Positions 18,079 to 35,899 are shown, counted from the first letter of the stretch. The stretch: 35,899 nt of DNA from a virus (IMGVR_UViG_3300046832_000788:1-35899), one strand, 5' to 3'. Made by a program: numbers and translations. Notes: a model not told the origin generated them from the sequence alone.

Positions 18079-18079
18079 A

Positions 18080-18676: not shown

Positions 18677-18690
18677 TTCGTATTTTCTCC

Positions 18691-21600
18691 TTATCGGTTT
18701 CTTGACCAATATCTAGGGTTAAGAACTCTTAAGAACATGTCGTATCCTTCGCCACCTGGCTTTAGAAGAGAGTCGATGCGTTCTTGAACTTTAGCGCGGT
18801 ACGCGTCGAGGCTTCCGAAGTTCTTGACGATGAGATCAAGTTCTTTTCCCGTAGGAAGATTAGCAGGATTGTCTAGCTGCATCATCATTACGCGAGCTTC
18901 GTTTCTAAAGATATCAAGAATTTCTTCTTGCTTTAGACGCTTAGTCAAAACAGGCATTGCCATTCCATAGATCTTATTGCTGTCACCGTCAAACAGCTCT
19001 TGTACGGTAAACTGCATTCCTTCAATGTCAGGACTAAACGTTGACAGCGCATGGTCAATGGGCAATGCGCGAATACGTGTCTTGTCGGTGCCATCGACCG
19101 CCAGTAAAAGATTATTGTTGTGACGGTCCATGTTGCTAATAATAAGATCTACTAACATAATGCGCACGGCATCTTCAGGGGTATGAAGAAGGTCCATAAA
19201 GTTTTCTGGAGTAATCTTGATTGTAGTCCCGTCAGGCATGTTGATTGCCATACGATTTCCAAGCGCATTCTGCGCGGTCATTGGCTCACTCAGCAGAGGA
19301 ATGCCAGCTCCTGCGCGCTGCATAACAAGAATCTCTGGGTCGACGTTACTGACGCGTGTTTCATACCCGGCACTTACACCAGCAGCGCGTAGCATTGTGT
19401 CTGCTTGTACCTCTGCGCCAGGACCGCTAATTTCAAACTGAGTAGCGTACGAGTCCTTCTTCACAAAAAACACTTGACCTGAATCATTGTGTGTCACCAT
19501 ATAGGTGTCATTGACTCCAGATTCAAAGACGCCAAGTTCTTTTACAGTAAAACCTGGTACATTATTTCTGCGAACGTCTTCAATTGACACATCTAGAAGC
19601 TGCGATCCAACTCCAAAGTCCTTTGAAGAAGCTAGTGGATTATCAGCCTTAAACTCTGCATCAAGCGCGATACGTAACTTGAAGATATCCTGCAGTGTAG
19701 CATCTCGTCCTTCGCCCTTAAGGAGCTGACCTGCAGTGTAGCGGTTAAGCGCTGTCTTAGCTGCTGGAGAAAGAACTGCCAATGAGCGGTTACTTCTTAG
19801 TACATCGCGAATCTGATCGATGTAAGGAGCTAGCTCTGGATTTGTATCTGCAAACTCGTTGCTGTTGACCTTTAGAACAAGTTCGCGGCTAACGCCAGGC
19901 CGATTTAGCTTGTCCTCTATGCGCTTACGTGCATTACGGGACTGGTCATAGTTAATAGCTTGACGCTGCTCGATAGCTTCTGGGCTGAGACGTTTTTGCC
20001 CATACCAGCTCATACTAATCATTTGCTTCTTGCCTACCCAGTTAGTCGCACCAGGGTACCAACCAATAAGCGCGAGCTCTAAAGGAGTAGGAACTGTGTC
20101 TACTTTATATTCTCCAGTTGGATTATCTTTTGCGACACGATCCTGCATTCTTTTAATGATCTGCTTTTCTTCATCTGTAGCATCTCTTCTATTTGACATG
20201 CTACGAAGAATACGTGGAACATCGCTTGCCTGTGAGGCTTGCCAGTTAAATCCGTTAAGCGCCCAGACAAAACCACCTTGCCATCCGCCTCCACCAGCCG
20301 CATAGACCTTTACACTGTCAAAGCCATTTGCGATATACCAATCTTCCATATATCTGTTATAGGCTGTAACAAAACCAGACTTCTTGTCTCTTGTGTTTGG
20401 AATTTTAAGAATATTGTTTGACACTGTCCATGACGCAGATTTAGTTCCGTCTGGATTTTCCTTGTTCGTGCTTCTAAGAGTACGGCTGCCTTCTCCGATT
20501 TGAACTCCTTGATCATTTAGAATTCTAAATGCTACTGAGATTTCAGCCTCGCCTGAAGGATAGATAGTGTATCCGACTCGAGCACTCTTATCAAGAGTGT
20601 AGTTATTTTTTCCAAACTGCACGCCTTCACGAATTCCAAAAATGTCTTTGATAAGGTTGTCAGTCTGAGCTCGAAACGCGGCTTGGTCACTAGAAGCTTG
20701 GTCACGCTCGTCAGGAGAGGATGATGAAGACTCTGCTATAGCTTTAGCTTCTTTTTCTTTTGCTATAAGATCTGTGATGTTGCCGATAGTAGCTCTGTCA
20801 CGGCCAGCTCTTGCGATTTCAGGAGCGCGTAGACCCCAGGCAGAGTAGTCAGATTGCTTTGCATCAGGGTTAGCAAACTCCGCAATCTCGGCTGGAGTGT
20901 CTACTAACTTAACTCCAGAAATGCTTCCGTCTCCTGCTATAACTGGAGTGCCTGAAGCGGCTGGCTCGTTAAATCGAGCTGAAGGATCTTGTGGAACTGG
21001 GTTACGACGAGCTGGAGGTAACTGTCCTGGGCCTTGTGCTTGTTCTACTGGAGCGCCAGCATCAATTCCAAAGACTTGACGTGCAGAGCGAACAGCCGTG
21101 CTTCCATCATCAAAACGAACGCGAACATAGTCTGCATCACGGCCAGATTTTGTATCAATGTTTTGCACTGCTAAGATAGTTCCTGCACGTCCATCAGATA
21201 GTGCCTGCACGCGAGCGCCAGCACCAACAGCTACTCCGTTAGAGTCGAGAACAGTGTTATTTGCAGTATATCCAGCTTCACGAGGACCTGGATAGACAAA
21301 CTGTGGAGTTTCAGCTGCTGGGGAGTCAATAGGAGCGTCAACTAGAGGCTCTTCAACAGTAGGTGAAGCATCTGCAGGCTCTTCTTGAGCTACTCGACCA
21401 AGTATGGCAGGACCTGCGACTTCAGCGATTGCTTCAATAATCTCTTCATCGCTAGCCTCGGACCAATCAAGCAATCCTTTTTCATCTATAACATCACGAA
21501 TCTTGTCAACCGTGTCATCGTCAACCGTGTTTCCAGTTTGCTCGATGAGATCCTTAATCATCTGCGAGTGAGCTTGCAAAGTCGGTGTCTCTGGCTTTGG

Positions 21601-24201
21601 CTCGCTCATATCGTTTGACTCACGCTTTAGATCTACAAGAATGTCGTTTGTGTTAACACCTTGTAGTTGAAGTGCGTCACGGATTGCCTCTACTGGAACC
21701 TCGGTTGTAATATCACCAAAGTTTAGAAGCGCAGCGCCAGAGCCGTCTGTAATTCCTTCAAGCATCTGCATGATGAGATCTGATGTCTCGTAGTCAGCAG
21801 CTATGTCAGGCGCGTTGTCAGTGTAGCCATTTTCGTCAGGCGTTGGCTGAGACGGAATGTACACGCTTGGGTCTGGGATGTAATAGTCAGGGTTTTCAAA
21901 GTCAATAGGAAGATTTTCTATAAGAGATCCTGGAAGCTTTACAACAGACGTTGTCTTTTGGTTTGCAATTGAAGGCTCATCGTCTGGAGTTGCATCTTTG
22001 ATCTGACGAATCTCAGCAGTAATGTCATCTACAAGCTTTGCTTCCTCAGGAGAAGGTGTTCCGCCTTGCGCGTCAATAAGCTTTGCTAGGTTCTTGTTGT
22101 CTCCAGTTACAGAGTCGTATACGTTCGCAAGAACACGGTTAGGGTCGACTCCTGCATGCCATAGAGCATTGAACAATGACTCTGCAGGTACGAACTCTGC
22201 GCCTGCATTAAACTCTAATTGACCAGCACCAGACGGACGACCGAGGTTGACCTGTGCAATCTCTGTGTCAACGTCAACCTCTGATGGAGCGTCTAGCTCG
22301 TCGTCATCACCAACGTTTGCATTAAGAATATCGGCAACAGCCGCGTCAGAAGAGTTTCCAATAACTGCCTCAGAGAACGCAGAGATAAGATCTTGAACTG
22401 CGAACTTAGTTGCAAGACGCTCTGGGTCGTCTGTAAAGTCTGTGCTTCGCTCGTCTACACGACCTTGAACGTCGTAGTCTGCCGTATTGAACTTAAAAGC
22501 TCCATTTGGAACTTCAAAATCAGAAAATAGTCCAGGAGCAGAAGGATCAGAAGGAGACACTGGCTTTATAGGTGTTCCACCTGAGGGAGGAGCTGGAGGC
22601 TCTTCATTTGGTGTATTATCAACAGACGCGATTGGCTCTAACGAGCGACCACGGTTTTCTTCTTCTGCCTTAATCCAACGCGGGATATCTGCATCAGCTT
22701 CAGCCCAGGAGTCATACTTCTTGTCATAGGCTGCAAATGTTCCGTCACGGTAGAACTCTGCTTCAGCAAAGACAGGGTTTCCATTGTCATCTGCAATTAT
22801 TTTCCTATACTGAATAGAAGGAAGTCCTTCTTCAGCATATACGATGTCTGCGCCGATAGCTCTGCGCTGGATATCAGCTGCCCTACCTGGCTTAACAACG
22901 CCTTCCCAGCCGTCAGGAACTGTATTTCCATTTTGATCAACGCCACTCTTAACAAGCTCTTCAAGCTTGTCAAACTCTGCGTTGTGCACTGTTCTAGCAT
23001 CTAGGCGAGCTTTAACTTGTTCTTGTTGCGCAGAAGAGTCTTGGCCCTTAACTGCATCGTACGCTGCCTGATCTCCATTAGCAAGATCGTTTATATCAGC
23101 CCAGCTTGCAGCTTCTCCAACCTTGTCGCCAAGTGAACCGTCTTCTTTTTGACGGAAGAGAGTATACTCGCCGTCCGTTACCTTTGCAGTGTAGTTATCA
23201 TCAGATGTAAATGTGTTCTCGTCTTGCTTTGTCCAACCTGTTGGCGCATCGCGACGAGTAGACATAAGATCAACCTGTGAAGGAATTCCTACCATTGATT
23301 GATCTGGTGCAGCGCCTGGAGTTACTCCAGCCTTTTCTAAAGCTTCAGTTGGAATACGTGCAGAGTATGTCTCTACGTTTTGAGGTTGAACTGCATAGAT
23401 ACCATCTGGGAGATTTGCATCTCCTGAAACTTGGATAAGACCTGCAGGGCGTGGATTTTCTCCTGCCCTAGGTACACTTACACCTACATAAACACCAGAC
23501 GCAGAGCCTACTCCGCCTCCTGCCATACGGTAGCGGAAGTTTGCACCGCGTCCCATTTCAACCCAGCGGCCTTTCTTGTCGCGCCACTGTAAAGCTACAC
23601 GAGCTCTACGAGCAGCAGAAGAGTTACCCTGTGAGAAAGCTGCAATGATTGGAGCTGGGTCAAGCTTAAAGTATCCAGGGACGTTTTCCTTAGTAACACT
23701 TAAACGCATGAATGCATGCTCGCGCTCTAGTGAACCTGGCTCTGCAGAGAACGCAGCTGCAACTAGCGGGCGCGCGTTATGCGAAACGTCTGGGTCAGAC
23801 GCGAGCCATTGTGAATACTTGAAGCGGTATTCTTCAGGTGTGAGCGACGCATTGAGCGCCGACAAAGGATTCCCCTGAGGCAATAGGTCTGTATGATTAG
23901 TCGTATTTGCACTAAACGTTTTTTGTGCGCTGGAGATAAATACCGATACCTCACGGAGAACACCAAAGTCACGAGACTCGTCTGACAGAGTAGATAGATC
24001 TGCAAGCGCGCGTTCCATAACGATAAGCGCAGAGCGTGGAGTGATCTGGCGCTCTTGTAGCGCATTAGCGTTTGCCTCATTAACAAGAGATAGAACACGC
24101 TGGCGAAGTGTAAGAACAGGGATGTAGTTACTGTCCTTTTTCTTCTTAGCTGCACTGCGCTCTAATGAACGCTGGATCTTCTTGTTGATTGGCGATTCCA
24201 T
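18691..24201 (-). CDS. 1836-aa polyvalent protein with SH3/KOW-like, GNAT-like and C-terminal HipA/PI3-PI4-kinase-like domains
   Basis: Kinase motifs: GVNDTY..FFVKK..E, DLIISNMDRHNNNLLL, PIDHALS. GNAT-like segment: KKSGFVTAYNRYMEDWY..NGFDSVKVYA..GGFVWALNGFNW. SH3-like segment: GARVQ..GTILAV..YVRVRFDDG. Confidence 0.72.
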   Translation of the reverse strand: MESPINKKIQRSLERSAAKKKKDSNYIPVLTLRQRVLSLVNEANANALQERQITPRSALIVMERALADLSTLSDESRDFGVLREVSVFISSAQKTFSANTTNHTDLLPQGNPLSALNASLTPEEYRFKYSQWLASDPDVSHNARPLVAAAFSAEPGSLEREHAFMRLSVTKENVPGYFKLDPAPIIAAFSQGNSSAARRARVALQWRDKKGRWVEMGRGANFRYRMAGGGVGSASGVYVGVSVPRAGENPRPAGLIQVSGDANLPDGIYAVQPQNVETYSARIPTEALEKAGVTPGAAPDQSMVGIPSQVDLMSTRRDAPTGWTKQDENTFTSDDNYTAKVTDGEYTLFRQKEDGSLGDKVGEAASWADINDLANGDQAAYDAVKGQDSSAQQEQVKARLDARTVHNAEFDKLEELVKSGVDQNGNTVPDGWEGVVKPGRAADIQRRAIGADIVYAEEGLPSIQYRKIIADDNGNPVFAEAEFYRDGTFAAYDKKYDSWAEADADIPRWIKAEEENRGRSLEPIASVDNTPNEEPPAPPSGGTPIKPVSPSDPSAPGLFSDFEVPNGAFKFNTADYDVQGRVDERSTDFTDDPERLATKFAVQDLISAFSEAVIGNSSDAAVADILNANVGDDDELDAPSEVDVDTEIAQVNLGRPSGAGQLEFNAGAEFVPAESLFNALWHAGVDPNRVLANVYDSVTGDNKNLAKLIDAQGGTPSPEEAKLVDDITAEIRQIKDATPDDEPSIANQKTTSVVKLPGSLIENLPIDFENPDYYIPDPSVYIPSQPTPDENGYTDNAPDIAADYETSDLIMQMLEGITDGSGAALLNFGDITTEVPVEAIRDALQLQGVNTNDILVDLKRESNDMSEPKPETPTLQAHSQMIKDLIEQTGNTVDDDTVDKIRDVIDEKGLLDWSEASDEEIIEAIAEVAGPAILGRVAQEEPADASPTVEEPLVDAPIDSPAAETPQFVYPGPREAGYTANNTVLDSNGVAVGAGARVQALSDGRAGTILAVQNIDTKSGRDADYVRVRFDDGSTAVRSARQVFGIDAGAPVEQAQGPGQLPPARRNPVPQDPSARFNEPAASGTPVIAGDGSISGVKLVDTPAEIAEFANPDAKQSDYSAWGLRAPEIARAGRDRATIGNITDLIAKEKEAKAIAESSSSSPDERDQASSDQAAFRAQTDNLIKDIFGIREGVQFGKNNYTLDKSARVGYTIYPSGEAEISVAFRILNDQGVQIGEGSRTLRSTNKENPDGTKSASWTVSNNILKIPNTRDKKSGFVTAYNRYMEDWYIANGFDSVKVYAAGGGGWQGGFVWALNGFNWQASQASDVPRILRSMSNRRDATDEEKQIIKRMQDRVAKDNPTGEYKVDTVPTPLELALIGWYPGATNWVGKKQMISMSWYGQKRLSPEAIEQRQAINYDQSRNARKRIEDKLNRPGVSRELVLKVNSNEFADTNPELAPYIDQIRDVLRSNRSLAVLSPAAKTALNRYTAGQLLKGEGRDATLQDIFKLRIALDAEFKADNPLASSKDFGVGSQLLDVSIEDVRRNNVPGFTVKELGVFESGVNDTYMVTHNDSGQVFFVKKDSYATQFEISGPGAEVQADTMLRAAGVSAGYETRVSNVDPEILVMQRAGAGIPLLSEPMTAQNALGNRMAINMPDGTTIKITPENFMDLLHTPEDAVRIMLVDLIISNMDRHNNNLLLAVDGTDKTRIRALPIDHALSTFSPDIEGMQFTVQELFDGDSNKIYGMAMPVLTKRLKQEEILDIFRNEARVMMMQLDNPANLPTGKELDLIVKNFGSLDAYRAKVQERIDSLLKPGGEGYDMFLRVLNPRYWSRNR

Positions 24202-24206
24202 TAGGC

Positions 24207-26387
24207 TTATCCCTTACGCTTTTTTGGAAGTAAGTCTGCGTCCTTTGATTCATATAGCTTTGTCGCAAGTGTATATGCTCGCTCGAAAGGAACGTCTCCG
24301 TCGCGAACACCGCGTAGCCATGCACCGCGAAGAGCTGGGATTGCCTCGTAGCCAAGACCTGTGTACTCGGCCATAGAGTAAATAGCATGCTCTGGTGAGC
24401 CGTATTCATCTGCGGACTTAAGTGCGATCTGTAAAAGCTCGTGCTGTAGAACAGATGCCTCACCGCGACTTGACTTTGGATGCGCCTTAGGCAAAAGATC
24501 GTTGTCCTGCTTGTAATTTGGATTTGCAGGAGAGCCTGAGCGCAAAAGCTTTAGGAACGCGTTAACGCGAGCCATTGCCCACTGATCACGAGTCTTACCT
24601 GGTCTGTGTGAGCTTGAGAACGCGCCTGAGCCTCTACGGTAGACAGCCTTTAACATTGGAAGTGTCGCCTTACGCCCAGGCTTTGCATCCTTGTTGTGCT
24701 CTGCTACTTTATTGCGAAGAGCTGTTTCTGTCTTTGCAGAGAAAACAATTTTCTTAGATCCAGCTGCAGACCCTGGCTTATTTTTCTTTGAGCCGTAGAT
24801 GCGGTCCTTCTTTGGAGCCTTACGTGAGCTTGCTGCAGTAATAGGTCCACCGACTGCCCACGCGTTACATGTACGAGATGCGGCGCACTTAAAGTCTAAT
24901 GCTTCGCAGTACCCAAGCTCTGCCTGGTCGATTGCTGAGTCAGCGTCTGTAGAGCTAGAGTCGCCTTGCTCTAGTCCAGAGGAAATGCAATCAAGCATCT
25001 TTGGAGTGCGAACAAAGAATACGCAGTTCCCGCAGACGCTTGTCTTTGCTTCTTCAGGAGTTGTATCCCACTTGTCAGCTTTCTCTTGCCAAAATTCTTC
25101 GTTAGGCTCTTTAGGATTCAACGGGCCGTAGCCAACGTTGTCAATAGCGTTTTGACGATTCTTTAGATTTAATTGAATGTCCTGTGTTGCAGGTGGGCAC
25201 TCGTCTGCATCATCTGCTGCAAACTCCGAGTCATCGGATGCATCTACAGGAACACAGTTAGGAACCATATCTCCGTTCTTGCCCTTCTTCATTCCTACTT
25301 GCTTGTATCCGTCCCAGCACGGACTCTTTCCTGCAAACTCAGAAGAGTCGTAAGAATCTAAAAGATCAACTGAAGCTGTGATCTGGTCGTCTTCAACCTT
25401 AACTACGCCGTCAGGGATAACCGCAAAGCGGCACTTGCCGTCGTCTTCAATTGGCTGTGCGATAATCTTGCAAACGCCAGGACCTTCGTACAAGACACAG
25501 TTGATGCACTTAACACCGATGTCCTTGACATCGTTCTCTTCTGGAGGAGTATATCCTGCCCAGATACCTGTACGGTCTTCGTTAAACTTTCCGTACTTCT
25601 CTGCGATCTCTAAAAGCGCCTTAGCAAGATCCTGCTCCTCGGCAACGATAATGCCAGCGGCTGCCATTGCCTCGTCACGCTCTTCTTGGTACGAGAACAT
25701 CGGGTCATACTCTTCATCTGCGATGTCCATGGAGATGTGGCACTGCGGACATGGGCAATCTTCACCGCATAGGCAATAGCCGTTATCGCATCCCGGGCAT
25801 ACGCATCCGACAGGCCCGCATAGAGGGCAACCGTCGTTATCATTCATAAGCTGCTCAACAACAGGAGTGTCTCCTGCGTCTAAGAGTTCAACAGCTTCAG
25901 ATTTTCCCAGCATATCTGCTTCAGTTGGTGATAGGAACGCGGCTAGCTGCCAACGCCACTTCTTTTGCATATCAATTCGTCCACCGATGAAGTCTGCGAC
26001 ACCTTGCTCATTTGCCGCTGTTGCAAGCTGGAAGCAATTGTCAAGAGACATGATCATAATGTTGTTTGCTGCATATAAATCTTGAACCATCATCATTGCG
26101 TCTGTGCCGCAGTCCATGTCGTCCATCTGGCTGAGGTTCATAAGATCCTCAAGACGATAAGGAGCCATCGCTCCAAGCTTACGCATGTTCTCCGCTAGAG
26201 GATCAAACATAGAGTAAACGTCCTCGTAGATTTCCTGGAAGAACTCGTGGAACTGGCTGAAGTCACGTCCCATAACGTTCCAGTGATGTCCCTGAGCCTT
26301 AAAGTACAAGTGGACTGCGTTGCCTAATGTATCGGCAAGACACTCTACAACCTCAGGCTTTTCTACGCGCATGTTGGCGTGGTTCAT
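24207..26387 (-). CDS. Dps/ferritin-like domain fused to several Cys-rich modules and a basic C-terminal domain
   Basis: N-terminal HHWNVMGRDFSQFHEFFQEIYE...DPLAE.MRKLG...KWRWQL is a Dps signature. It is followed by a Cys cluster, CxxC modules and a VYRRG.GAF..SHRPG...QWAMARVNAF domain. Confidence 0.8.
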   Translation of the reverse strand: MNHANMRVEKPEVVECLADTLGNAVHLYFKAQGHHWNVMGRDFSQFHEFFQEIYEDVYSMFDPLAENMRKLGAMAPYRLEDLMNLSQMDDMDCGTDAMMMVQDLYAANNIMIMSLDNCFQLATAANEQGVADFIGGRIDMQKKWRWQLAAFLSPTEADMLGKSEAVELLDAGDTPVVEQLMNDNDGCPLCGPVGCVCPGCDNGYCLCGEDCPCPQCHISMDIADEEYDPMFSYQEERDEAMAAAGIIVAEEQDLAKALLEIAEKYGKFNEDRTGIWAGYTPPEENDVKDIGVKCINCVLYEGPGVCKIIAQPIEDDGKCRFAVIPDGVVKVEDDQITASVDLLDSYDSSEFAGKSPCWDGYKQVGMKKGKNGDMVPNCVPVDASDDSEFAADDADECPPATQDIQLNLKNRQNAIDNVGYGPLNPKEPNEEFWQEKADKWDTTPEEAKTSVCGNCVFFVRTPKMLDCISSGLEQGDSSSTDADSAIDQAELGYCEALDFKCAASRTCNAWAVGGPITAASSRKAPKKDRIYGSKKNKPGSAAGSKKIVFSAKTETALRNKVAEHNKDAKPGRKATLPMLKAVYRRGSGAFSSSHRPGKTRDQWAMARVNAFLKLLRSGSPANPNYKQDNDLLPKAHPKSSRGEASVLQHELLQIALKSADEYGSPEHAIYSMAEYTGLGYEAIPALRGAWLRGVRDGDVPFERAYTLATKLYESKDADLLPKKRKG

Positions 26388-28112
26388 TTACTGTGCTCCT
26401 TCTTGTGGCTCTTGTAAAGCTGGTGGCAATTCTTCTTCTGCAGGTGTTGCTTCTGGAGATGCTGCCTGCTCTAAGATCTGTTGAATCTCAGGAGGTACAG
26501 GCGCTACGGAGCTTGCCTGCTGTGCGTCGCGGACCGCGTTCATAACCTCAGGCGCGATTGCGTCAAGCATTGCCTGGGTGAACTCCGGAGAGATCGTTCC
26601 CTTATCAGCAAGAAGACGAATTGCGATTTCCTTTGCGTCCGGTGCGTCTGCAGCGGAGAAGCCGTGAGCGCGTCGCCATGTCTCGTAGGAAACTGCCATA
26701 CGGTCAAATCCTGAATCAGCATCTGCTGCACGGTCATTACGTGTAGCAACCTGTGATGGGTCATACCAAACAACGATGCGCTTAACCTCGGCCTCGTCAA
26801 AGCCTGCAGCGATAAGCGCTGGTCGTAGGTAGACGACAGTTAATGCATCTGCGATGAGAAGCATCAACGGCTCGATGTGTGCCTTGTACAACGCTTCGTC
26901 AATTTGTAGCGCGTTGGAGTACTTAACGTTTGCTAGACCAGTTACGACATCCTTAGGAACGTCAAGTCCCTGGAGGATACGCTCAAGCACGCGATCTGCA
27001 CGTTGTGCAAGTGCAGGGTCAAACGAGCGCTCAAACTTAAACTGCTTAATTTTGTCGCCAAGCTCTGCAGGTCCACGAATAATCAACGGCACAACCGCGG
27101 ATGCTGAATCCTCGTCACGAATAGGAGTCGTCATCGCGTCCATGAGCTGATCCTCAAACTCGTCCGCAGCTTCCTCGGCTGTAATGCCAGGGTTTAACTC
27201 GTTCTCGTCGTCATATGGATAGTCTGGGTCTGCGCTAGCGGCAACAGAAAGTCCGTCTGGCAAGTAAAGGGCACCAGCGTTTAGACGTGAGCGCGCGGTT
27301 GCGCGAAACGTTCTGTTGAGGAGAAGAAGTTCAGAGCAAAGATCAAGGATACCCTTAATTGAAGAGTCAGCCTCTTCGGAGTAGCGTGGGTGAGCTCTCC
27401 AGATGCGTCCAACGAAAGCCGTGTTAGGAAGTCTGTATCCCTGTGTAGGACCAGATGAGCCAGACGATAGAACGTCACGACGTGGAACAATTGTGTATTG
27501 GTTCTTTGCGTCAAGTTGTAACTCGTCTGTTGAGCGAATGTCCCATGACTCTTTAACGCCTGAGCCTTTACGCTCTGGGAACTGGACGAGGTAGCATTCA
27601 CCTGTAACGGATAAGTTCAATGCCGCGTCCCGCAAAAGCCCAGCTTGTCCGCCGTACGCGGAGTCTAAGCGTGCTAATGCGCGTTCTGCGGCGGCCGCAA
27701 GATTTGGGTCAATGACATCACTGTCCCGAGCAGATACTGGATTCTCCGCAGGATTGTCAACAGCCGCAGCGTATAAACGAATACGCGATACGACGGACGC
27801 GACAAGATTAAACGCGTACTTAACTTCGCCGATGGCGTCGTAGTACTCCCAGGCTTCATGTTGCCAGTCGGTAGATCCGCCTTTGCGACGTTGCTTAAAC
27901 TTTTCAACTTCACCCTTATCGTCCAACTTCATTTGAACAGCCGCGGCAGTAATAGGACGAGGTGCAGAGTACGGCGCTGCTTGATAAGCGCCAGGAATAG
28001 GAGCAGGAGTTATAGCTGCTCTCTTTGGGTTACGAGGAGCGCTCGCGGTGATACGACGAGATCTAGAGGTAGGACGGTTGTTAGTGTTGTCGTCCTTAGA
28101 GAAAAGTGCCAC
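26388..28112 (-). CDS. Portal protein
   Basis: 574 aa with WQHEAWEYYDAIGE, LSVTGECYL, RIWRAHP, RSRLNAG.L..P and SAVVPLII motifs typical of actinophage portals. First gene of the head operon. Confidence 0.85.
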   Translation of the reverse strand: MALFSKDDNTNNRPTSRSRRITASAPRNPKRAAITPAPIPGAYQAAPYSAPRPITAAAVQMKLDDKGEVEKFKQRRKGGSTDWQHEAWEYYDAIGEVKYAFNLVASVVSRIRLYAAAVDNPAENPVSARDSDVIDPNLAAAAERALARLDSAYGGQAGLLRDAALNLSVTGECYLVQFPERKGSGVKESWDIRSTDELQLDAKNQYTIVPRRDVLSSGSSGPTQGYRLPNTAFVGRIWRAHPRYSEEADSSIKGILDLCSELLLLNRTFRATARSRLNAGALYLPDGLSVAASADPDYPYDDENELNPGITAEEAADEFEDQLMDAMTTPIRDEDSASAVVPLIIRGPAELGDKIKQFKFERSFDPALAQRADRVLERILQGLDVPKDVVTGLANVKYSNALQIDEALYKAHIEPLMLLIADALTVVYLRPALIAAGFDEAEVKRIVVWYDPSQVATRNDRAADADSGFDRMAVSYETWRRAHGFSAADAPDAKEIAIRLLADKGTISPEFTQAMLDAIAPEVMNAVRDAQQASSVAPVPPEIQQILEQAASPEATPAEEELPPALQEPQEGAQ

Positions 28113-28152
28113 TCTAAATTACTCCTCGTCGTTGATTAACGGAGTGCATGAA

Positions 28153-28856: not shown

Positions 28857-29344
28857 TGTGAGTTGGCCCTGTCTACTCTACGTTTCATCGCGCGATAGGT
28901 AACTCCTGAAGCACGGGCTAGCTCAGATACGGTAACACCTTTTAGATAAAGTTCTCCTGCGATGACAGTTAGCTGGGTATTCGCGGTGAAAGAAGCAGAC
29001 CCTGGATTTGTGCGGGCGCGATAGCGTCGTGCCAGCGGTGATAAGCGGGCGATTTGAAGTTGCTGATCTACAGGAATCCCAGGTGACGGTGGACGTTTAC
29101 GTCTCAACTTTTGCTTAGGCTTTGGAGGCGTAGGGGTCGCGGTGACGAAAACGCACTCGGGCGTATCCTTGATAACCCAGGAGCGTACGGTTGAGCGACG
29201 CCGTGGAGGGTCAAACGCGTCGGCAATAGACTGAAGGGTCCAGCCTGCATCATTGAGGTCTTTTACCCGACGCCATAGTTGCTCCTTGGAGAGGGAGGCT
29301 AGAAGTTCGGCCTCGCTCTTTGGGAGTTCGGGTGTATGCGCCAT
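28853..29344 (-). CDS. Tandem helix-turn-helix DNA-binding protein
   Basis: Two HTH-like segments (GWTLQSIADAF..RRSTVRSWV; GVTVSELARASGVTYRAMKRR) joined by a Pro/Lys/Arg linker. Apparently leaderless (TGaTACAGT-6 nt-ATG). Confidence 0.75.
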   Translation of the reverse strand: MAHTPELPKSEAELLASLSKEQLWRRVKDLNDAGWTLQSIADAFDPPRRRSTVRSWVIKDTPECVFVTATPTPPKPKQKLRRKRPPSPGIPVDQQLQIARLSPLARRYRARTNPGSASFTANTQLTVIAGELYLKGVTVSELARASGVTYRAMKRRVDRANSQ

Positions 29345-29535
29345 GAGAATACTGTATCACCTTCGAGGACGAATGTGTACAAAAAGCGCTTATAGTATTG
29401 TGTACAAACGGAGCAGAAACAGTGCCTTTTGGTTAAAATGGCTTTGGCGTGAGAAAGGGTTATGTATAGTTTGAGACACTTTCAAAAACGTCTCCAACTA
29501 TTTTTTCATCTTCTGTGCGAGATTTATAAAATGAT

Positions 29536-29574
29536 AAAAAAAGACTGGCCAATGCCTAAGCACTGACCAGCCTT
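29536..29574 (-). terminator. Intrinsic terminator
   Basis: Minus strand GGCTGGTCAGTGC-TTAG-GCATTGGCCAGTC followed by TTTTTTT, just after the PG-binding gene. Confidence 0.88.
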
Positions 29575-29589
29575 CCTTTGTTTAAGAGT

Positions 29590-30069
29590 TTATAGTACTA
29601 CTTGTACGTTGTGATCTCCTTCAAAGATCTTAGTCAACGTTGTAGCATCAACAGATCCAGTTACATCCAAGCCTTTGCTTGCTTGGAAGTTCTTGATAGC
29701 AGCTACAGTCTCATCACCTAGCCAACCATCCTTGTCAGCGTCAGCGTCCTTGAAACCAAGTTCAATGAGGCGACGTTGTAGATGATGGACAGATAGAGAT
29801 TTGCGAGCATATACATTTTTGTAAATGCAATTTGCTAGGAGGACCTCGTCGACGCCATTGCCACTGACAGACTGGTTAGCCTTAGGCGTGTGTGCCTTAG
29901 GCTCCTCGACATGTACAGGTTCAGGCACAACCTCAGGGATTACCTCAGGCTCAGGTGCAGGTGTAGGTTCAACGATAACCTCAGGCTCAACGATTGGAGC
30001 AGGTGCCTTAACGACAGGTGCCTCATCGATGACCGCAGGTTCGATGTGTTCAGTATTTAATTCGTCCAT
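29590..30069 (-). CDS. Peptidoglycan-binding domain protein with Pro/Glu-rich N-terminus
   Basis: VHHLQRRLIELGF...DGWLGDETVAAIKNFQ..KGL.VTGSVD..T matches PG_binding_1. No catalytic domain is evident. Confidence 0.85.
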   Translation of the reverse strand: MDELNTEHIEPAVIDEAPVVKAPAPIVEPEVIVEPTPAPEPEVIPEVVPEPVHVEEPKAHTPKANQSVSGNGVDEVLLANCIYKNVYARKSLSVHHLQRRLIELGFKDADADKDGWLGDETVAAIKNFQASKGLDVTGSVDATTLTKIFEGDHNVQVVL

Positions 30070-30089
30070 GGTGTAATAGTATCCGTATC

Positions 30090-30671
30090 CTAGGACTTTG
30101 ACTTTGTTGGGAATTCAGTGTACCACTTGGTCACCGCAGGCTCGATCGAATCGCCGTCGTATGCATTAGGACCTAGACCCCATGAGCCCCAGTCCTTACC
30201 ACCCGCTGTCATGTAGTAGGCAGCCTTAGCATTTGCTACAGGGTCAAATAAATCGGTAACCTTTACGATACCAATCTTGTCCTGGAACTTAGCTAATCTG
30301 TCAACACCTAGTCCGCCGATCATGTTGATTTGGAATAGGCCGTATGAGTTATCGCCGGTGTTGGCGTTCTTGTTGTGAGCAACAGGGCGCCCACGAGACT
30401 CACGCATGACAACTGCCCATGCTGTTTTAAGAGCCTTGCCTTCAAACCCTGCCGCAGTTAATACTTCTATTAACTCGTAAGGGTCCAGTTGTTTTGCATT
30501 CTCTAGGATTGCAAGCTTGATAACTTGCTCAACCTCTGCTAAATGCAATGGTGCTGCTTGCGTTACAGGCTCAACCGCGTTGCTCGAAAGAGCTGTGATT
30601 GAAGCTATACCGATTGTGATTGCCGTAATATAGGCTACGGTCGACATTGCAATTCCACGTAGTGTAAGCAA
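30090..30671 (-). CDS. Secreted lytic transglycosylase / lysozyme-like protein
   Basis: Hydrophobic N-terminal signal or anchor. Catalytic motif MRESRG, then GDNSYGLFQIN, LFDPVANAKAA and DWGSW. TAAGGAGG RBS before a TTG start. Confidence 0.85.
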   Translation of the reverse strand: MLTLRGIAMSTVAYITAITIGIASITALSSNAVEPVTQAAPLHLAEVEQVIKLAILENAKQLDPYELIEVLTAAGFEGKALKTAWAVVMRESRGRPVAHNKNANTGDNSYGLFQINMIGGLGVDRLAKFQDKIGIVKVTDLFDPVANAKAAYYMTAGGKDWGSWGLGPNAYDGDSIEPAVTKWYTEFPTKSKS

Positions 30672-30857
30672 CGCTAGTTCGCCTCCTTAGGTCGGGGATG
30701 GGACAACCCAGTGATAACTGCTCACTGAGCTTCTTGCTACCGATACGCTCCTCAAGCTTTCGCTTGTCCTCTACCGCTTGCGTATGGCCGGAGATAAGAA
30801 GGGATGACATAGTCGTATCCTTTCGTCTCTCCGTAATTGGCTTTATTGCTAGGCGTA
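30672..30857 (-). ncRNA. Candidate structured cis-regulatory leader RNA upstream of the transglycosylase
   Basis: About 185 nt between an extended -10 (TGGTATAGT, ~30858-30866) and the start codon, containing three to four stems including CAAGC-GAAA-GCTTG. I do not recognise the family. Confidence 0.45.
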
Positions 30858-30901
30858 ACTATACCACGCCGAAAAGCAAAACAGGCACTATTAGGCGCCC
30901 G

Positions 30902-31081
30902 TTAGCTATTTTTTATCTTCTTGATTAAATTGATGGTTGCGTAGATCAGCTTGACAATCAGGCGACCGAAGATGATAGTGAACGTAAAGTCATCTGACTT
31001 CTCTAATCTCCTTGAACGTCGAGTACTCTTTTGCACCGCGTAAATAATCGGGCTGTCGTGTACTAGTCCGCGTAGTGGCAT
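30902..31081 (-). CDS. Small basic protein (59 aa) sharing its N-terminus with the gp10-like tail protein
   Basis: Start reassigned to ATG 31081: GGAGGTGG RBS and TATAAT at 31113-31118. The longer ORF-track version would cross a terminator. Confidence 0.65.
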   Translation of the reverse strand: MPLRGLVHDSPIIYAVQKSTRRSRRLEKSDDFTFTIIFGRLIVKLIYATINLIKKIKNS

Positions 31082-31132
31082 TATCACCACCTCCTCTCCT
31101 GTTGATGGCTTAATTATATCGCCATTTTCAGG

Positions 31133-31170
31133 AAAAGTAAACCCCTCCCCAGGGCGAACCCAGGGAGGGA
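31133..31170 (-). terminator. Intrinsic terminator
   Basis: Minus strand CCCTCCCTGGG-TTCG-CCCTGGGGAGGG followed by GTTTACTTTT. Confidence 0.75.
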
Positions 31171-31176
31171 CTACGT

Positions 31177-31350
31177 TTATACCGTTTGAGCTAGGCACGC
31201 CCATGCCACCGCGGATAACCCTAGGGCTAGGACCAAAGTGCCTCTATCCGGGGATAGAAGGCTCACGAGTACGGCAATGAAGGATAGGACCGCAGCGATT
31301 ACCGCAGGCCAAATGAGGCTTTGCAGCCTCAGCATAAGTCTGTCCAGCAT
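31177..31350 (-). CDS. Small two-helix membrane protein (57 aa)
   Basis: Below the ORF-track cutoff. TAATG-coupled to the HTH gene. Translation: MLDRLMLRLQSLIWPAVIAAVLSFIAVLVSLLSPDRGTLVLALGLSAVAWACLAQTV. Ends just before a terminator. Confidence 0.7.
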   Translation of the reverse strand: MLDRLMLRLQSLIWPAVIAAVLSFIAVLVSLLSPDRGTLVLALGLSAVAWACLAQTV

Positions 31351-31535
31351 TACTTAGTCTTTCGGGTCTTGCCCTTGAGTCGATCTGACGTGTTGCGGAT
31401 GTCTGTACCAGACTCGGCGATAAGCTTGCGAGCCTTGCCGTAGGTAATACCTAGTGCCTGAGCTACCTCATCTACAGACTTCCCGTCTGAGTAAAGCTGA
31501 GCTGCCTGGTTTGGAGTTACTGTTGATGTTGTCAT
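31350..31535 (-). CDS. Small helix-turn-helix protein
   Basis: LYSDGKSVDEVAQALGITYGKARKLIAESG. GAAAGGA RBS. Confidence 0.8.
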   Translation of the reverse strand: MTTSTVTPNQAAQLYSDGKSVDEVAQALGITYGKARKLIAESGTDIRNTSDRLKGKTRKTK

Positions 31536-31579
31536 TGCTTTCCTTTCGTAGGTTTACTTTTGAGCAAAAACGTGACTGC

Positions 31580-32032
31580 TCAAGATTTTGTGCCCTTTTG
31601 AGGCTTTGGTGGAGTTTTTCCATGTTTGTCGCAGAGGGCTCTCCCACCCCACGGGCCACGAGGTTTTATGTTGTTGTCGCAGTCACTACCGTAGCCAGCC
31701 GCATCACACTTGATCTTTGTACCTCGAGTGAAGTTGTTGACGAGCGAGACGATTGCCCGCTTGATTACAGAGTCATTAACTACGAATCCATTTTCTTGAT
31801 GACAGGACCAGCAGAGATACTCGTTCCTGCGATGTGATGGATCTCTGACAGCGTTGTCAGCTCCACACTTGTCGCAAGGCGTAGCTCTCTTTATTAGTCT
31901 TGTTTTATCTCTGTAATGTTCAGCACAGAGAAGGCTGTCGTTTAGCTCATACACAAGTACGTTGGATTCCTGACATACGGAACACGTGTCATAGACATAG
32001 ATGTGTTCTCGTTGGCTTGTACCTTGTGTCAT
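31580..32032 (-). CDS. Multi-zinc-finger protein
   Basis: CSVC..LCAEH, CDKC..CWSC and C..C..LCDKH clusters. GGAGG RBS and its own -10 (TATAGT). Confidence 0.72.
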   Translation of the reverse strand: MTQGTSQREHIYVYDTCSVCQESNVLVYELNDSLLCAEHYRDKTRLIKRATPCDKCGADNAVRDPSHRRNEYLCWSCHQENGFVVNDSVIKRAIVSLVNNFTRGTKIKCDAAGYGSDCDNNIKPRGPWGGRALCDKHGKTPPKPQKGTKS

Positions 32033-32089
32033 TATTCCTCCGTATTTGTCGTTGGTAGAACTATAATCCTTTTTCCTTTACTTGTACAC

Positions 32090-32371
32090 TTACTTTCTAG
32101 GCTGAACTACTCCTAGAAGAGCTACCTGCTTGTGGGCAGCCGCAAGGTTGAAGAAGCGCTCTGCACGGTCATCGTAGACCGAGGCGATAAGTATTGAAGG
32201 AGTGACGAAGGCAACTACACCTGTGACCATCGCTAGAAATCCGATAAGTGTAGGTGAGGTTGCGAAGATACCAATCATGGCGATTGACCATAGACCAGCG
32301 ATTACCTTAAGCGCGAATGAGACTCGGCGAGCTTGGAATCCCTTACGGCGATACTCTTTTACTGTTGACAT
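32090..32371 (-). CDS. Small membrane protein
   Basis: Two hydrophobic helices. GAAAGGA RBS and its own promoter. Confidence 0.72.
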   Translation of the reverse strand: MSTVKEYRRKGFQARRVSFALKVIAGLWSIAMIGIFATSPTLIGFLAMVTGVVAFVTPSILIASVYDDRAERFFNLAAAHKQVALLGVVQPRK

Positions 32372-32399
32372 GTTCTTGTCCTTTCGTCATTGGGTTGTA

Positions 32400-32436
32400 C
32401 AAGATAATTATAACAGGTAAATCAGGAAGATGTAGG
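32400..32436 (-). promoter_or_regulatory. SigA/sigma70-like extended -10 promoter
   Basis: Minus strand TACATCTTCC...CCTGTTATAATTATC, a near copy of the promoter at 32579-32612. Confidence 0.7.
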
Positions 32437-32437
32437 T

Positions 32438-32554
32438 TTATCCTAAGATAAAAGCAATTGCCACTGCGATTGCCACTCCTACGAAGGCACCAACAGGTCC
32501 CGCAACGTCTGCGTACTCGTCTAGCCAATCGATTACCGCTGTGAATGGGTTCAT
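32438..32554 (-). CDS. 38-aa single-pass membrane peptide
   Basis: Below the ORF-track cutoff. Translation: MNPFTAVIDWLDEYADVAGPVGAFVGVAIAVAIAFILG. GGAAGGA RBS and its own promoter. Confidence 0.68.
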   Translation of the reverse strand: MNPFTAVIDWLDEYADVAGPVGAFVGVAIAVAIAFILG

Positions 32555-32578
32555 TTTCTTTCCTTCCGTCGTTGTTAG

Positions 32579-32612
32579 GATAATTATATCAGGAAGGTTG
32601 GGAAAATGTAAC
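32579..32612 (-). promoter_or_regulatory. SigA/sigma70-like extended -10 promoter
   Basis: Minus strand TTACATTTTCC...CCTGATATAATTATC, immediately after the terminase stop codon. Confidence 0.7.
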
Positions 32613-34003
32613 TATCTAACCTTAAAGGTGTTTCTAATATTTGGGATCTTTCGGCCCGCAGGTGACTTGGCGGTAATCCGCCCTCCCACGAATCCCGCAG
32701 GCGGCTTAATGAGTAACGCAGTAAGGGCGTGGACCAACGCGTCAACGCGGTCAGGGGATTTGCCTTCGCCTGGAATCCACGAAGTCATCTGGGACTCTAG
32801 GTCCGCTAGGTAGCCAACGTGGTGGACGCGGTCCTGTTCGTAAGCCAAGGTAATAGGCTCAGCGCGAAGTGCCTTGCCGTGCTTGGAGTGGACCTCAAGA
32901 ACCTTTACAGATGGGTCAATTGTGTTAATGGCGTTTCTTACCAAGGCACCACCTTGGTTTACTTCGGCTACGACAGGGCAACCCCATTTACGAGCCATGG
33001 CAACTACACGGTTAGCCCACACATCCGGTGAGCCTAAGATTGAAGCATCCTCAAGCACCCAGCTCTGACGCTTGTAAAGATCTCTGTCGGCTGTTGATGA
33101 AACAACAACGATTCCGCATTCATCTCGAGGATTCTCGGCAACCGATGGGTCGACGCCGATTACACGCAACGGTGCGTTCATCGCTGTCATTTGGCGAGTC
33201 CTGTCAATAAGCTCTACAGTCCAGAGAGCTCCTTCAACGTCTGAAAGCATCTCACCGTAAAGCTCTTGTGCAGCTAGACGAGTTCCTTCGTACACTCCGA
33301 GGATTCCGTCCATGTAAGCTTGTGAAAGGTTTCCTGTGTTGTCCATGGTTGAACCTTTTGTAATGATTACCTTGCCAGGATTCGCATCAGCCTCACGAAG
33401 TAGCTCATAAAGAAGCGGTACACGTTTTGGAGTAGTGGTAACCATAATTTTTGGATTCTTACCAAGACGAGTGCCAATACGCAAGTTCTCAAACGCCGTA
33501 AGCCCAGCTCCATCTGGAGTCTGACGCCAAGCGGCAACCTCATCTCCCCAAGCGTGTGTGAACTGAGGACCACGAAGAGAATCTGGTTCATCAGCTGTGA
33601 AGCATGTTGCCGTATTTCCATTAGGCCAAGTTAGTCTTCGCTTTGACGGCTCGTACAACGGACGCTCACTTGGAGGTGTAACGTTAATGATTCCTGATTC
33701 ACCTTCAACGATAACGTCACGTACGTCAGCAGCTGTACGAGCTACCAACGCGAAACGGCGTTGACCGGTATTTGTATGTTTAGCTTCTTCACGCACCCAC
33801 TCGGCTGCCGTACGAGTTTTACCAGCACCGCGACCTGCAAGGTACATCCAGATATTCCACTCATCGCCTTCAGGACGTTGCTGTTCGGGACGTCCCCAAA
33901 ACGACCAGTCCCATTGAAGAGCCTCAGGGTCTAGACCTGCTAGAACCTGAGCCTTCTCTTCGTCGGACATGGCCGCAATGAGCTGTGCTAGACTTTTTCC
34001 CAT
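32612..34003 (-). CDS. terL: Terminase large subunit
   Basis: Walker A LAGRGAGKT, LRGPQF..AWGDE (Walker B), VTTTP coupling motif, and nuclease motifs IGVDPS and SPDRVDA. Confidence 0.95.
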   Translation of the reverse strand: MGKSLAQLIAAMSDEEKAQVLAGLDPEALQWDWSFWGRPEQQRPEGDEWNIWMYLAGRGAGKTRTAAEWVREEAKHTNTGQRRFALVARTAADVRDVIVEGESGIINVTPPSERPLYEPSKRRLTWPNGNTATCFTADEPDSLRGPQFTHAWGDEVAAWRQTPDGAGLTAFENLRIGTRLGKNPKIMVTTTPKRVPLLYELLREADANPGKVIITKGSTMDNTGNLSQAYMDGILGVYEGTRLAAQELYGEMLSDVEGALWTVELIDRTRQMTAMNAPLRVIGVDPSVAENPRDECGIVVVSSTADRDLYKRQSWVLEDASILGSPDVWANRVVAMARKWGCPVVAEVNQGGALVRNAINTIDPSVKVLEVHSKHGKALRAEPITLAYEQDRVHHVGYLADLESQMTSWIPGEGKSPDRVDALVHALTALLIKPPAGFVGGRITAKSPAGRKIPNIRNTFKVR

Positions 34004-34033
34004 GTGTACTATAGTACCTTATAAAAGGAAATG

Positions 34034-34948
34034 TTATACGGTGATGTGGTTGTAAATCTCAGATACAACAGTTGCCCAGACTTTAGGAGTATGGGTAAGA
34101 GGTTGATAGCCTCCGGCTCCTCCAATAAGTACTCGCCCCTTTGCATGCTTGTTAGCGATGTCCGCAACGATACGAGCTGCTGCTCTGTATCCAGGATAAT
34201 CAAACGTTAACGAAGATAAAGGATCTGAATGATGTGCATCAGCTCCGGTAGCCAGAAGGACTACATCTGGCTGAAACTCATCAGCTAGGATTTCTATCTC
34301 CTTCATAGCATCTAAGAAGTCTACGTCTCCAGCTTCGCTACTCAACGGCCAATTGTAAGCTCCATTTTCTGGCTCGCTTGCAAGACCAGTGCCTGGGAAG
34401 ATTCCATCCTCGTGAATACTTGCCGTAACTATATTTGGGTATGCCCGCAGGATGTTTTCTACGCCATCGCCATGATGCGCATCCCAGTCGATGTACATAG
34501 GCTTAAGCCCAGCAGCCGAAAATAGCTTAGCGACTAACGCCATGTCATTGAATACACAAAAACCAGACGAGTGGTCGTACTGCGCGTGGTGCTTAGCTCC
34601 CTGCGGATTAAACGCAACCTTTGCTTCGCCGCTAAGAATCTTTTCGTATAGACGAATAGTCCCTGCAGCCATTTCGAGAGCTACGTCACCTAAATGCTGC
34701 TGGTCTGGGTACCATTCACCGCAATGACCTTGGTCAAGAACCTTAGAAATGTACTCATCGCTGTGAACATGATTTAGCAGATCTCTATCAGATTCAGATG
34801 CAGCTGGATCTACCATTACTGGATCTAGTTTTTCAAGAAGCTCTACCGCAAGCTTAGCTCGCATTGGATTTGTCGGATGGCTACCATCGCCAGCTCCTAG
34901 CTGCCAATCTAGGTAGATGTCATCGTAAGCAATATGAAGTTTACTCAT
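34034..34948 (-). CDS. Zn-dependent histone deacetylase family (HDAC/AcuC-like) amidohydrolase
   Basis: HPTNP.R, GAKHHA...SGFCVFND, YIDWDAHHGDG, SIH..GIFPGTG, GADAH.SDPL and GAGGY: the full catalytic motif set. Start at 34948 or 34957. Confidence 0.92.
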   Translation of the reverse strand: MSKLHIAYDDIYLDWQLGAGDGSHPTNPMRAKLAVELLEKLDPVMVDPAASESDRDLLNHVHSDEYISKVLDQGHCGEWYPDQQHLGDVALEMAAGTIRLYEKILSGEAKVAFNPQGAKHHAQYDHSSGFCVFNDMALVAKLFSAAGLKPMYIDWDAHHGDGVENILRAYPNIVTASIHEDGIFPGTGLASEPENGAYNWPLSSEAGDVDFLDAMKEIEILADEFQPDVVLLATGADAHHSDPLSSLTFDYPGYRAAARIVADIANKHAKGRVLIGGAGGYQPLTHTPKVWATVVSEIYNHITV

Positions 34949-35465
34949 CGTTATCATCTACTAGCGCAAGTAGAAATTCTTCGAACTCTTTGTTAATCAA
35001 AACGTAGCGACTACGCTTTTGACGTAGAAGGTTAATTGCATCTTCTGGCTTGTATCCCATTTTGATTAGAGCCAAGGCAGCAGTCAGACCAGAACGATTT
35101 AACCCGGCCTGGCAACGAATTAAAACCTTATTGCCGTTTTGAACTTGGTCAACCGCGTATGAAGCAGCGCGATGCAAAGCTTTCATATCAATGTGAGAGA
35201 TATCAGAATCGTAGAATCCGAAACGTAGTTCCTCAACCATCCAGTCAACTGGATTCGCCCATGCGTAAAGCGTGACAACCGCATCGAACTCATCCTTGGT
35301 GATGTTACGGCTTGTGTGAATGTTTGCAGAGTCTTCGATTGTGTCATCGTCATCTGTACCACCAACCCATAGGTTAGGCAAGATCTCACTCCACAGTGGG
35401 AAGTCCCAGTCAGCGATTTCATGAGCTGGTGCGTAGCCTGTTTCGATGTTAACTATCTTTGCCAT
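34941..35465 (-). CDS. Dual-specificity / tyrosine protein phosphatase
   Basis: CX5R loop VLIRCQAGLNRSG, plus EILPNLWVG and AINLLRQKR. Likely start ATG 35465. Confidence 0.9.
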   Translation of the reverse strand: MAKIVNIETGYAPAHEIADWDFPLWSEILPNLWVGGTDDDDTIEDSANIHTSRNITKDEFDAVVTLYAWANPVDWMVEELRFGFYDSDISHIDMKALHRAASYAVDQVQNGNKVLIRCQAGLNRSGLTAALALIKMGYKPEDAINLLRQKRSRYVLINKEFEEFLLALVDDNDE

Positions 35466-35537
35466 GTTGTTTCTCGTCTCTTTGTCATTTGTCATTTAAT
35501 AATACTATTATAACAGGATAAGTTACCTGTCAGTAAC

Positions 35538-35899
35538 TTACTCTTCTTGTATAAACGTGTGAATGTTACCGCCAGAGTAGATGTCATGCTTGATAGCAAT
35601 TTCTACTGCACGATAAACAATCTTCTCAGCTTCCTTTGCGCTCTTACACTTTTGATAGTTAAGAGCTTCAAGAACGCCGAGAGCTAGATCCGAACCGCTA
35701 CCTGAATGATAAACGTTTCGTTCTTCTCTGTCCCAGGAGTAATCTTCGTAAATTGGGTAAAGAACTCCGTGTATTGAAACAATGAACTCTGAATCGTGAG
35801 CCGCAGCTTCACCATCAGCCTTCATGTCGTATCCGGACTCGATAAAAACCTTACGCATAGACGGAATAAATGTTTTCGTCATGAATACGTCAAGGTCTT
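35538..35899 (-). CDS. Ntn-hydrolase, proteasome beta/HslV-like peptidase (5' truncated)
   Basis: SGSGSDLALGVL...AVEIAIKHDIYSGG matches the C-terminal motifs of this fold. The frame stays open to the window edge (..DLDVFMTKTF), so the catalytic N-terminal Thr is not visible. Confidence 0.72.
   Translation of the reverse strand, partial: DLDVFMTKTFIPSMRKVFIESGYDMKADGEAAAHDSEFIVSIHGVLYPIYEDYSWDREERNVYHSGSGSDLALGVLEALNYQKCKSAKEAEKIVYRAVEIAIKHDIYSGGNIHTFIQEE

Follow-up and report, generated by a model that had tools for sequence, protein, structure and literature searches.

The window considered here is a 35.9-kb virus record (IMGVR_UViG_3300046832_000788; 35,899 nt, analysed at full length) from a lake phage, in which every gene lies on the minus strand. 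Between its portal and head-protease genes it encodes a giant protein of 1836 amino acids (18691..24201) that joins two biochemically unrelated effector folds, a GNAT acetyltransferase domain and an atypical kinase domain (KIN1), in one chain, and beside its terminase gene lie the overlapping genes for a Zn-dependent HDAC-family deacetylase (34034..34957) and a CX5R dual-specificity-type phosphatase (34941..35495, likely start 35465). A sequence-only reading had taken these as two 'writers' and two matching 'erasers' of protein marks, with an adjacent protease as a further member of the set. Among relatives sharing the portal, the head-gene GNAT and the HDAC were either both present or both missing in every record compared. 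On this genomic evidence the acetyl pair appears well supported, the phospho pair appears partly supported, and the protease would seem to have no part. Building on the established folds, catalytic residues, gene positions and co-occurrence, we propose, with moderate confidence, that the giant protein enters the cell together with the phage DNA, that its two domains there acetylate and phosphorylate host proteins, and that the phosphatase–HDAC pair removes these marks. What is new is the co-occurrence of the head-gene GNAT with the HDAC; the class of polyvalent head proteins was already known.

Distribution of writer and eraser domains

The portal protein (26388..28112; phrog_776, E 3e-108) was used as the phylogenetic marker. 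Its closest GenBank counterparts are those of the Actinomycetia phage DSL-LC01 (78%) and of large Microbacterium phages (58-65%), from which we infer an actinobacterial host; complete relatives are ~130 kb in length. Whole records, 54 and then 67, were searched with GNAT and kinase alignments and with HDAC and phosphatase families. The final panel held 47 portal-family records spanning both regions, namely 38 from IMG/VR or GenBank (the window included) and nine metagenome loci that were selected on the portal only and assessed over 10 kb of flanking sequence. Records without either region, several near-duplicates and phage Magritte, which is outside the family, were excluded.

GNAT in the head cargo and HDAC were both present in 20 records and both absent from 27, with none discordant (47/47 agree). 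When the comparison was reduced to independent pairs, all four agreed (p=0.125). The link that the sequence-only reading had drawn between GNAT and HDAC therefore appears to hold within the portal family, where the two do not seem to be distributed independently, on the basis of four pairs and a panel that includes partial records. For KIN1 and the phosphatase the panel was 46 records, as G054 was left out because its cargo is cut; both were present in 20, neither in 20, the phosphatase alone in five and the kinase alone in one (40/46 agree), and the independent pairs gave 2.3 same, 0 opposite and 1.7 tied. The crossed pairings agreed in 34/46 and 32/46 records, fewer than the cognate ones.

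Every window-clade record spanning both regions carried all four domains. GNAT and HDAC occurred without kinase or phosphatase in G025/G026, G060 and phage Magritte, and KIN1 and phosphatase without GNAT or HDAC in G047, L683, L687, L694, L704, L706 and L707, so that the acetyl and the phospho arm seem to be separate modules, each acquired or lost as a pair. In the six metagenome loci with only KIN1 and the phosphatase, the 10 kb upstream contained no open reading frame (ORF) of more than 240 amino acids except the portal; these loci thus have no HDAC near the phosphatase, as no ORF is long enough. The HDAC of G060 groups with a separate ~60-kb phage lineage and its GNAT falls outside the GNATs of its portal clade, which is consistent with joint acquisition, although the GNAT tree is poorly resolved.

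Four records that appeared to have HDAC without GNAT (G001, G004, G057 and G035) turned out to have a GNAT of divergent sequence among their cargo domains (hhalign P 90.8, E 1.2e-6), matched by window-by-window profile comparison to a second GNAT family seeded from G054. The same scan of 17 cargo proteins from HDAC-negative records gave nothing above P 18, with the exception of a spurious hit over 17 columns; the remaining HDAC-negative cargo was checked for GNAT by hidden Markov model only. Three GNAT hits were rejected: that of G014 (P 69.8), which consisted of 17 columns of non-GNAT sequence, that of L683 (P 18) and a single-sequence hit in G001 (P 64). The GNAT that stands alone in G001/G011 is fused to an ATPase, an arrangement linked to DNA modification in the text of PMC7824862, and was not counted as cargo.

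For kinases in general the picture was different. A second kinase-like subfamily, KIN2 (GSNxGG...YYVK...NE...NWD...DN...DPGG; for example residues 1581-1800 of L345:8622-17285, minus strand), was missed by the first kinase profile and found by a motif scan. It is not recognised by Pfam and is widespread in post-portal cargo, including that of DSL-LC01 and gp78 of Gordonia phage Forza. Both of these phages have KIN2 without the phosphatase, as do G003, G012, G013, G017, G019, G022, G024 and G027; a divergent KIN2 branch occurs in G001/G004/G057, which carry the phosphatase. When any kinase was counted, both partners were present in 23 of the 46 records, neither in eight, the kinase alone in 13 and the phosphatase alone in two. 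Since KIN2 mostly occurs without the phosphatase, a simple rule that kinase implies phosphatase was dropped, and the pairing proposed by the sequence-only reading is partly supported for KIN1, the window's own type, and fails for kinases at large. In five records searched for other enzymes, no PF00069 kinase was found and a metallophosphoesterase occurred in only 2/5.

Outside the portal family, 23 long contigs picked by GNAT included eight with HDAC; among the seven that were at least 90% complete, three had HDAC and four did not. No sirtuin was found in the five HDAC-less GNAT phages searched, and the HDAC-less GNATs fall mostly in one branch (support 85). From 21 long contigs picked by HDAC alone, 11 were examined: eight, all close kin within the ~60-kb lineage, had this GNAT in the head region, G091 was cut there, G092 gave a weak GNAT hit and in G088 none was found. 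A portal scan for this lineage returned one tight clade and was uninformative as a control. The head proteins of the lineage (L568:12040-17739, G087) also repeat the motif KHxxHDQxxHGNWA between modules, possibly a packaging or cleavage tag.

The giant protein and the phosphatase–HDAC pair

The giant protein has conserved N-terminal modules, a variable middle and a C-terminus made up of GNAT and kinase. Using a query that contained both of the latter segments, both were matched in 99 of 103 homologues (1021-3191 amino acids), with inserts in the middle that vary. In sister phages the N-terminal modules are kept and the same slot holds an ADP-ribosyltransferase (ART), UvrD helicase, primase, exonuclease, NUDIX or ArdC-N/MPTase domain. 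DRAT-like ADP-ribosyltransferase domains were also seen in G001-clade cargo (L328:2301-10772 and L330:8005-17724; Pfam E 6e-4 and 5e-12). With two unrelated effector domains in one chain, a gene among the head genes and cargo that varies among relatives, the 1836-residue protein fits the known polyvalent class (PMC5512222), as judged from sequence. Pfam and PHROG scans detected no ArdC-N, MPTase, LPD or MuF marker in the window protein; ArdC-N/MPTase is present in G014/G015 proteins that have N-terminal modules in common with it.

The sequence-only reading had located a GNAT-like domain at ~20240-20450; its fold was borne out, and its extent proved wider, at approximately residues 1199-1406 (19984..20607). 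An AlphaFold2 (AF2) model of residues 1100-1425 had a pLDDT of 95.4, and its best 50 rows in VIA were all GNAT/HAT-fold acetyltransferases or GNAT-like domains, with middling Z-scores of 5.5-6.9. The top match was 4u9w (Z 6.9, root-mean-square deviation (rmsd) 3.9, 143 residues aligned), and the leading ones include protein N-acetyltransferases and tRNA-acetylating toxins. Foldseek returned no match for this model at E<=1e-3, and Pfam gave no GNAT hit on the window protein. Across the broad family, the consensus shows the canonical motifs QGxGFA and GGYxWAxxGF. In the window these are KKSGFV (residue 1273) and GGFVWALNGF (residue 1309); the clade consensus for the former is KKSGFA, and its glycine is invariant. 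A profile search with the domain recovered 1047 cluster representatives at E<=1e-3, and among the best 150 matches 135 proteins were new, 40 with the kinase as well and 95 without it. Up to 10 divergent GNAT copies are found in one giant protein (P0111 has 10 copies of the first family), and the G054 cargo (L437:3-10103, minus strand) has five tandem domains of the second family. A Pfam GNAT hit in P0055 was discarded, being to a second, inserted GNAT and not to the window-type domain.

The HipA/PI3K-like kinase that had been placed at ~18700-19550 was confirmed as a HipA/CtkA/CotH/PI4K-like atypical kinase with its catalytic residues intact (residues ~1526-1836; 18691..19626). The AF2 model of residues 1420-1836 (pLDDT 92.8) matched CotH (Z 12.7, rmsd 4.5, 252 aligned), PI4KII (12.1), CtkA (11.0) and HipA (10.9), and also Fam20C, so the top matches, which include Vps34, are a mixture of protein kinases (CotH, CtkA, HipA, Fam20C) and lipid kinases (PI4KII, Vps34). 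With Foldseek there were 72 matches at E<=1e-3, and those listed were all kinases; the structural comparisons thus uphold the fold of both writer domains. In 69 aligned sequences K1581, E1597, D1692-R-H-x-x-N1697 and D1716 are invariant. By sequence, the PI3_PI4_kinase family of Pfam was hit at E 6.8e-4, weaker than its curated cut-off, and a search against the PDB gave no match.

Immediately behind the kinase, starting 14 nt past its stop codon, is a gene for a protein of 198 amino acids (18080..18676). Homologues were detected only in the position right after terminal kinases of the KIN1 type and never behind GNAT-only or KIN2 cargo, and they are often fused to another head module via a VVAAA linker. 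The protein had no hit in Pfam, PHROG or NCBIfam and no usable Atlas match, and it was not detected behind the KIN1 cargos of L691, L694 and L746 nor in Microbacterium phage Pumpernickel. It is a candidate kinase inhibitor or head module.

The overlapping pair at 34034-35465 is, as the sequence-only reading had it, an HDAC-family deacetylase (PF00850, E 3.6e-58) and a CX5R phosphatase (PF00782, E 1e-8; phrog_10650, E 6.9e-20; PRL/PTP matches), the two genes overlapping by 17 nt. The deacetylase retains its catalytic and Zn residues (the H123/H124 dyad, D159, H161, D240 and the catalytic Y284), has HDAH-type enzymes among its top PDB matches, and shares a GAKHHA signature that is invariant in 12/12 aligned phage HDACs. 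In the phosphatase the loop is C128-QAGLN-R134, and D96 is by position the candidate general acid. G035 has two tandem CX5R phosphatase genes (L439:2942-4086), and its cargo has two kinase domains.

Upstream of the pair there is an extended -10 element, TGnTATAAT (35507-35515), and a palindrome, GTTAC-N6-GTAAC (35522-35537), together occupying 35507..35537. The former is kept in 6/6 loci compared, and the palindrome, a possible operator of the pair, is perfect in 5/6. A consensus promoter scan found five sites against 3.2 expected, and the TGnTATAAT site was not among them. The conserved elements suggest that phosphatase and HDAC form a two-gene unit read by host polymerase. The idea that the erasers are expressed later than the writers did not gain from this, as a host-type extended -10 would also allow early expression. 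Four RNA-library runs contained small shares and contigs of relatives only, and gave no information on expression or its timing.

Proposed mechanism and competing explanations

In the mechanism that we favour, the giant protein would become part of the prohead and be processed at hydrophobic-x-Ala-Ala sites, of which it has one at residue 185 (IIAAF). After entry, the GNAT and the kinase may modify host proteins of transcription, translation or defence, as Rac and the T7 kinase do, and host RNA polymerase would transcribe the phosphatase–HDAC unit from the extended -10 element. The erasers, of which the HDAC is most credibly a remover of marks, might then limit the injected burst, shield the cell and the phage's own proteins during late mass production of the writers, and perhaps blunt superinfecting kin; the 198-residue protein may impose a further restraint on the kinase. 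We more tentatively suggest that actinobacterial phages have evolved enzymes to counteract the effectors that their own virions deliver, the HDAC against the GNAT and the CX5R phosphatase against KIN1, as independently gained and lost modules making up a reversible two-mark switch, and maybe an immunity against competing phages.

Each element has known counterparts. In Bacillus subtilis the GNAT AcuA and the Zn-dependent HDAC-family enzyme AcuC are writer and eraser of lysine acetylation; they are cellular, encoded by adjacent genes and regulate acetyl-CoA synthetase, whereas in the phage the two genes are separated by 14 kb, with the writer forming part of a head protein. Toxins of the HipA/HipT and GNAT (TacT/AtaT) toxin-antitoxin systems use similar folds to poison translation and are bound by a cognate antitoxin, unlike the neutralisers proposed for the phage, which are enzymes encoded elsewhere; by analogy the 198-residue protein could be a neutraliser of the binding type. 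Rac, the GNAT of phage phiKMV, is expressed after entry as a stand-alone protein. According to the text of PMC7824862 it acetylates host RNA polymerase, and the T7 protein kinase, as described in that of PMC13645617, disarms host defences; the latter differs from the window's kinase in being a stand-alone protein expressed after entry, with autophosphorylation and not a phage phosphatase as its off-switch. The polyvalent proteins (Iyer et al. 2017, PMC5512222) are likewise giant, encoded among head genes and composed of several enzymatic domains that are not related to one another. The domains given in that paper include GNAT, kinase, ART, helicase, primase and ArdC-N/MPTase, and these recur in the slot in the window's relatives. 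The kinases described there are without the C-terminal lobe, however, whereas that of the window has the full HipA/CtkA-like fold, and, as the words 'phosphatase' and 'deacetylase' occur nowhere in its main text, no matched erasers are described in that part of the paper. For a writer/eraser pairing itself, nothing relevant was found in a literature consisting mostly of open papers, which does not show its absence from print.

Polyvalent head proteins are predicted to inject protein-modifying enzymes, and in the literature examined there is no worked-out answer to how a phage withstands the production and delivery of such enzymes. A deacetylase that tracks head-gene acetyltransferases across lineages is one possible answer, and would explain why a few phages have an HDAC in the first place; HDACs are rare in phages (10 of 50,697 GenBank records; 288 stretches in IMG/VR). 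The two arms are split between cultured Microbacterium phages, Magritte having GNAT cargo with HDAC and Pumpernickel the kinase without phosphatase, and the erasers could act as substrate traps for finding the writers' targets.

Several observations weigh against this account. Four pairs are too few for significance, many of the positive records were found through these very domains, and of the 18 negative records from IMG/VR or GenBank eight are less than 90% complete. The HDAC can be as far as ~30 kb from the portal. The divergent GNAT was found by a search made after the exceptions had been seen, and the HDAC of G035 is a fragment at a contig edge. Beyond the portal family, the four distant GNAT phages without HDAC make up more than half of the seven complete ones, and G088 (67% complete) has an HDAC with no GNAT found. 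The structural Z-scores of the GNAT are not high, and motif A of the window ends in Val instead of Gly/Ala. On the phospho side, KIN1 occurs without the phosphatase in Pumpernickel and G061, the phosphatase without a detected kinase in G014/G015, and, with any kinase counted, the 13 records having a kinase and no CX5R phosphatase are accompanied by independent pairs that show no trend.

Two other explanations seem to us possible, if rather improbable. The first is co-inheritance without direct coupling, in which the writers would be ordinary polyvalent effectors, and the HDAC and phosphatase would strip marks made by the host (by its acetyltransferases, Ser/Thr kinases, or defence or toxin enzymes), and would travel in a block of host-maintenance genes that also includes HslV and Dps. 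Consistent with this, the HDAC adjoins HslV in both lineages, G014/G015 have the phosphatase with no kinase detected, the phosphatase is present in 40 GenBank actinophage records (in which kinases were not checked), and independent contrasts are few. However, loss of an eraser tracks loss of the cognate writer although the genes are 15-30 kb apart, the crossed pairs agree less well, and HslV persists without HDAC and vice versa. The HslV/proteasome-beta-like peptidase itself (35538..35899; PF00227, E 1.3e-5) is cut at its 5' end by the window end, and an identical locus supplies the N-terminus (MTTLVAIQG). It occurs in 16/45 records independently of both erasers: six of these records have neither, and several HDAC-bearing records lack it. 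Thus the gene foreseen by the sequence-only reading is there, and its membership of the writer/eraser system was rejected and the protease dropped because of this independent distribution.

The second, which we rate no higher and which overlaps the first explanation, is that only the acetyl enzymes form a pair. Here the kinase would be kept in check by the 198-residue protein or through autophosphorylation, while the substrates of the CX5R enzyme would be RNA ends, lipids or host phosphoproteins; some enzymes of the CX5R type do use RNA or lipids. The restriction of the 198-residue family to positions behind KIN1, the self-inactivation of the T7 kinase (text of PMC13645617) and the frequency of kinases without phosphatase once KIN2 is counted all speak for it. 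Against these stand the agreement of KIN1 and phosphatase in 40/46 records with no independent pair opposite, the KIN1 cargos (L691, L694, L746 and Pumpernickel) behind which the 198-residue protein went undetected, and its frequent fusion to a head module.

Cycling of a small molecule is unlikely. In this explanation the GNAT and HDAC would act not on proteins but on, for example, polyamines, for DNA packaging or infection; phages encode spermidine N-acetyltransferases, giant viruses have HDAC-family acetylpolyamine amidohydrolases (text of PMC9992855), the top PDB matches of the window's HDAC include HDAH-type enzymes, and the HDAC gene adjoins the terminase. The viral amidohydrolases described in PMC9992855, also of the HDAC family, come however from giant eukaryotic viruses, with homologues given there only in Imitervirales and no link to a head-gene GNAT. 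The GNAT, moreover, occurs in up to 10 divergent copies per giant protein, as effector domains do, and among the folds that it matches best are those of protein N-acetyltransferases and tRNA-acetylating toxins. It is very improbable that the writers modify phage head proteins during assembly without being injected, with the erasers reversing the marks for packaging. The genes do lie in the head operon and beside the terminase, but close relatives that lack both domains, or have ART, helicase or primase cargo in their place, still assemble, and this speaks against a structural need.

Neighbouring genes

The genes of the window run in the series tail, major capsid, a protease fusion of 1539 amino acids, the ORF of 198-209 amino acids, the giant protein, a Dps fusion and the portal, and beyond the portal come small genes, the terminase large subunit (32612..34003; PF03237 and PF17289), the HDAC, the phosphatase and the HslV-like gene. 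The Dps fusion (24207-26387) joins a Dps/ferritin domain to a Cys-rich stretch, Cys-rich modules and DUF5824; its tail resembles the N-terminal helical module of the giant protein, and the modules vary among relatives. A hydrophobic-x-Ala-Ala/Ser motif recurs in the portal, Dps fusion, giant protein, protease fusion and capsid (13498-28112), as a raw recurrence, and the protease fusion has two copies of RDxxG(R/K)(W/F), a motif also present in the giant protein. Genes for a peptidoglycan-binding protein and an SLT-type lysozyme (29590-30671) lie upstream of the head operon. In the Microbacterium phages Cece, A3Wally, Zooman and Pumpernickel (L322-L324, L082) the interval between terminase and portal holds extra terminase-like genes or fragments.

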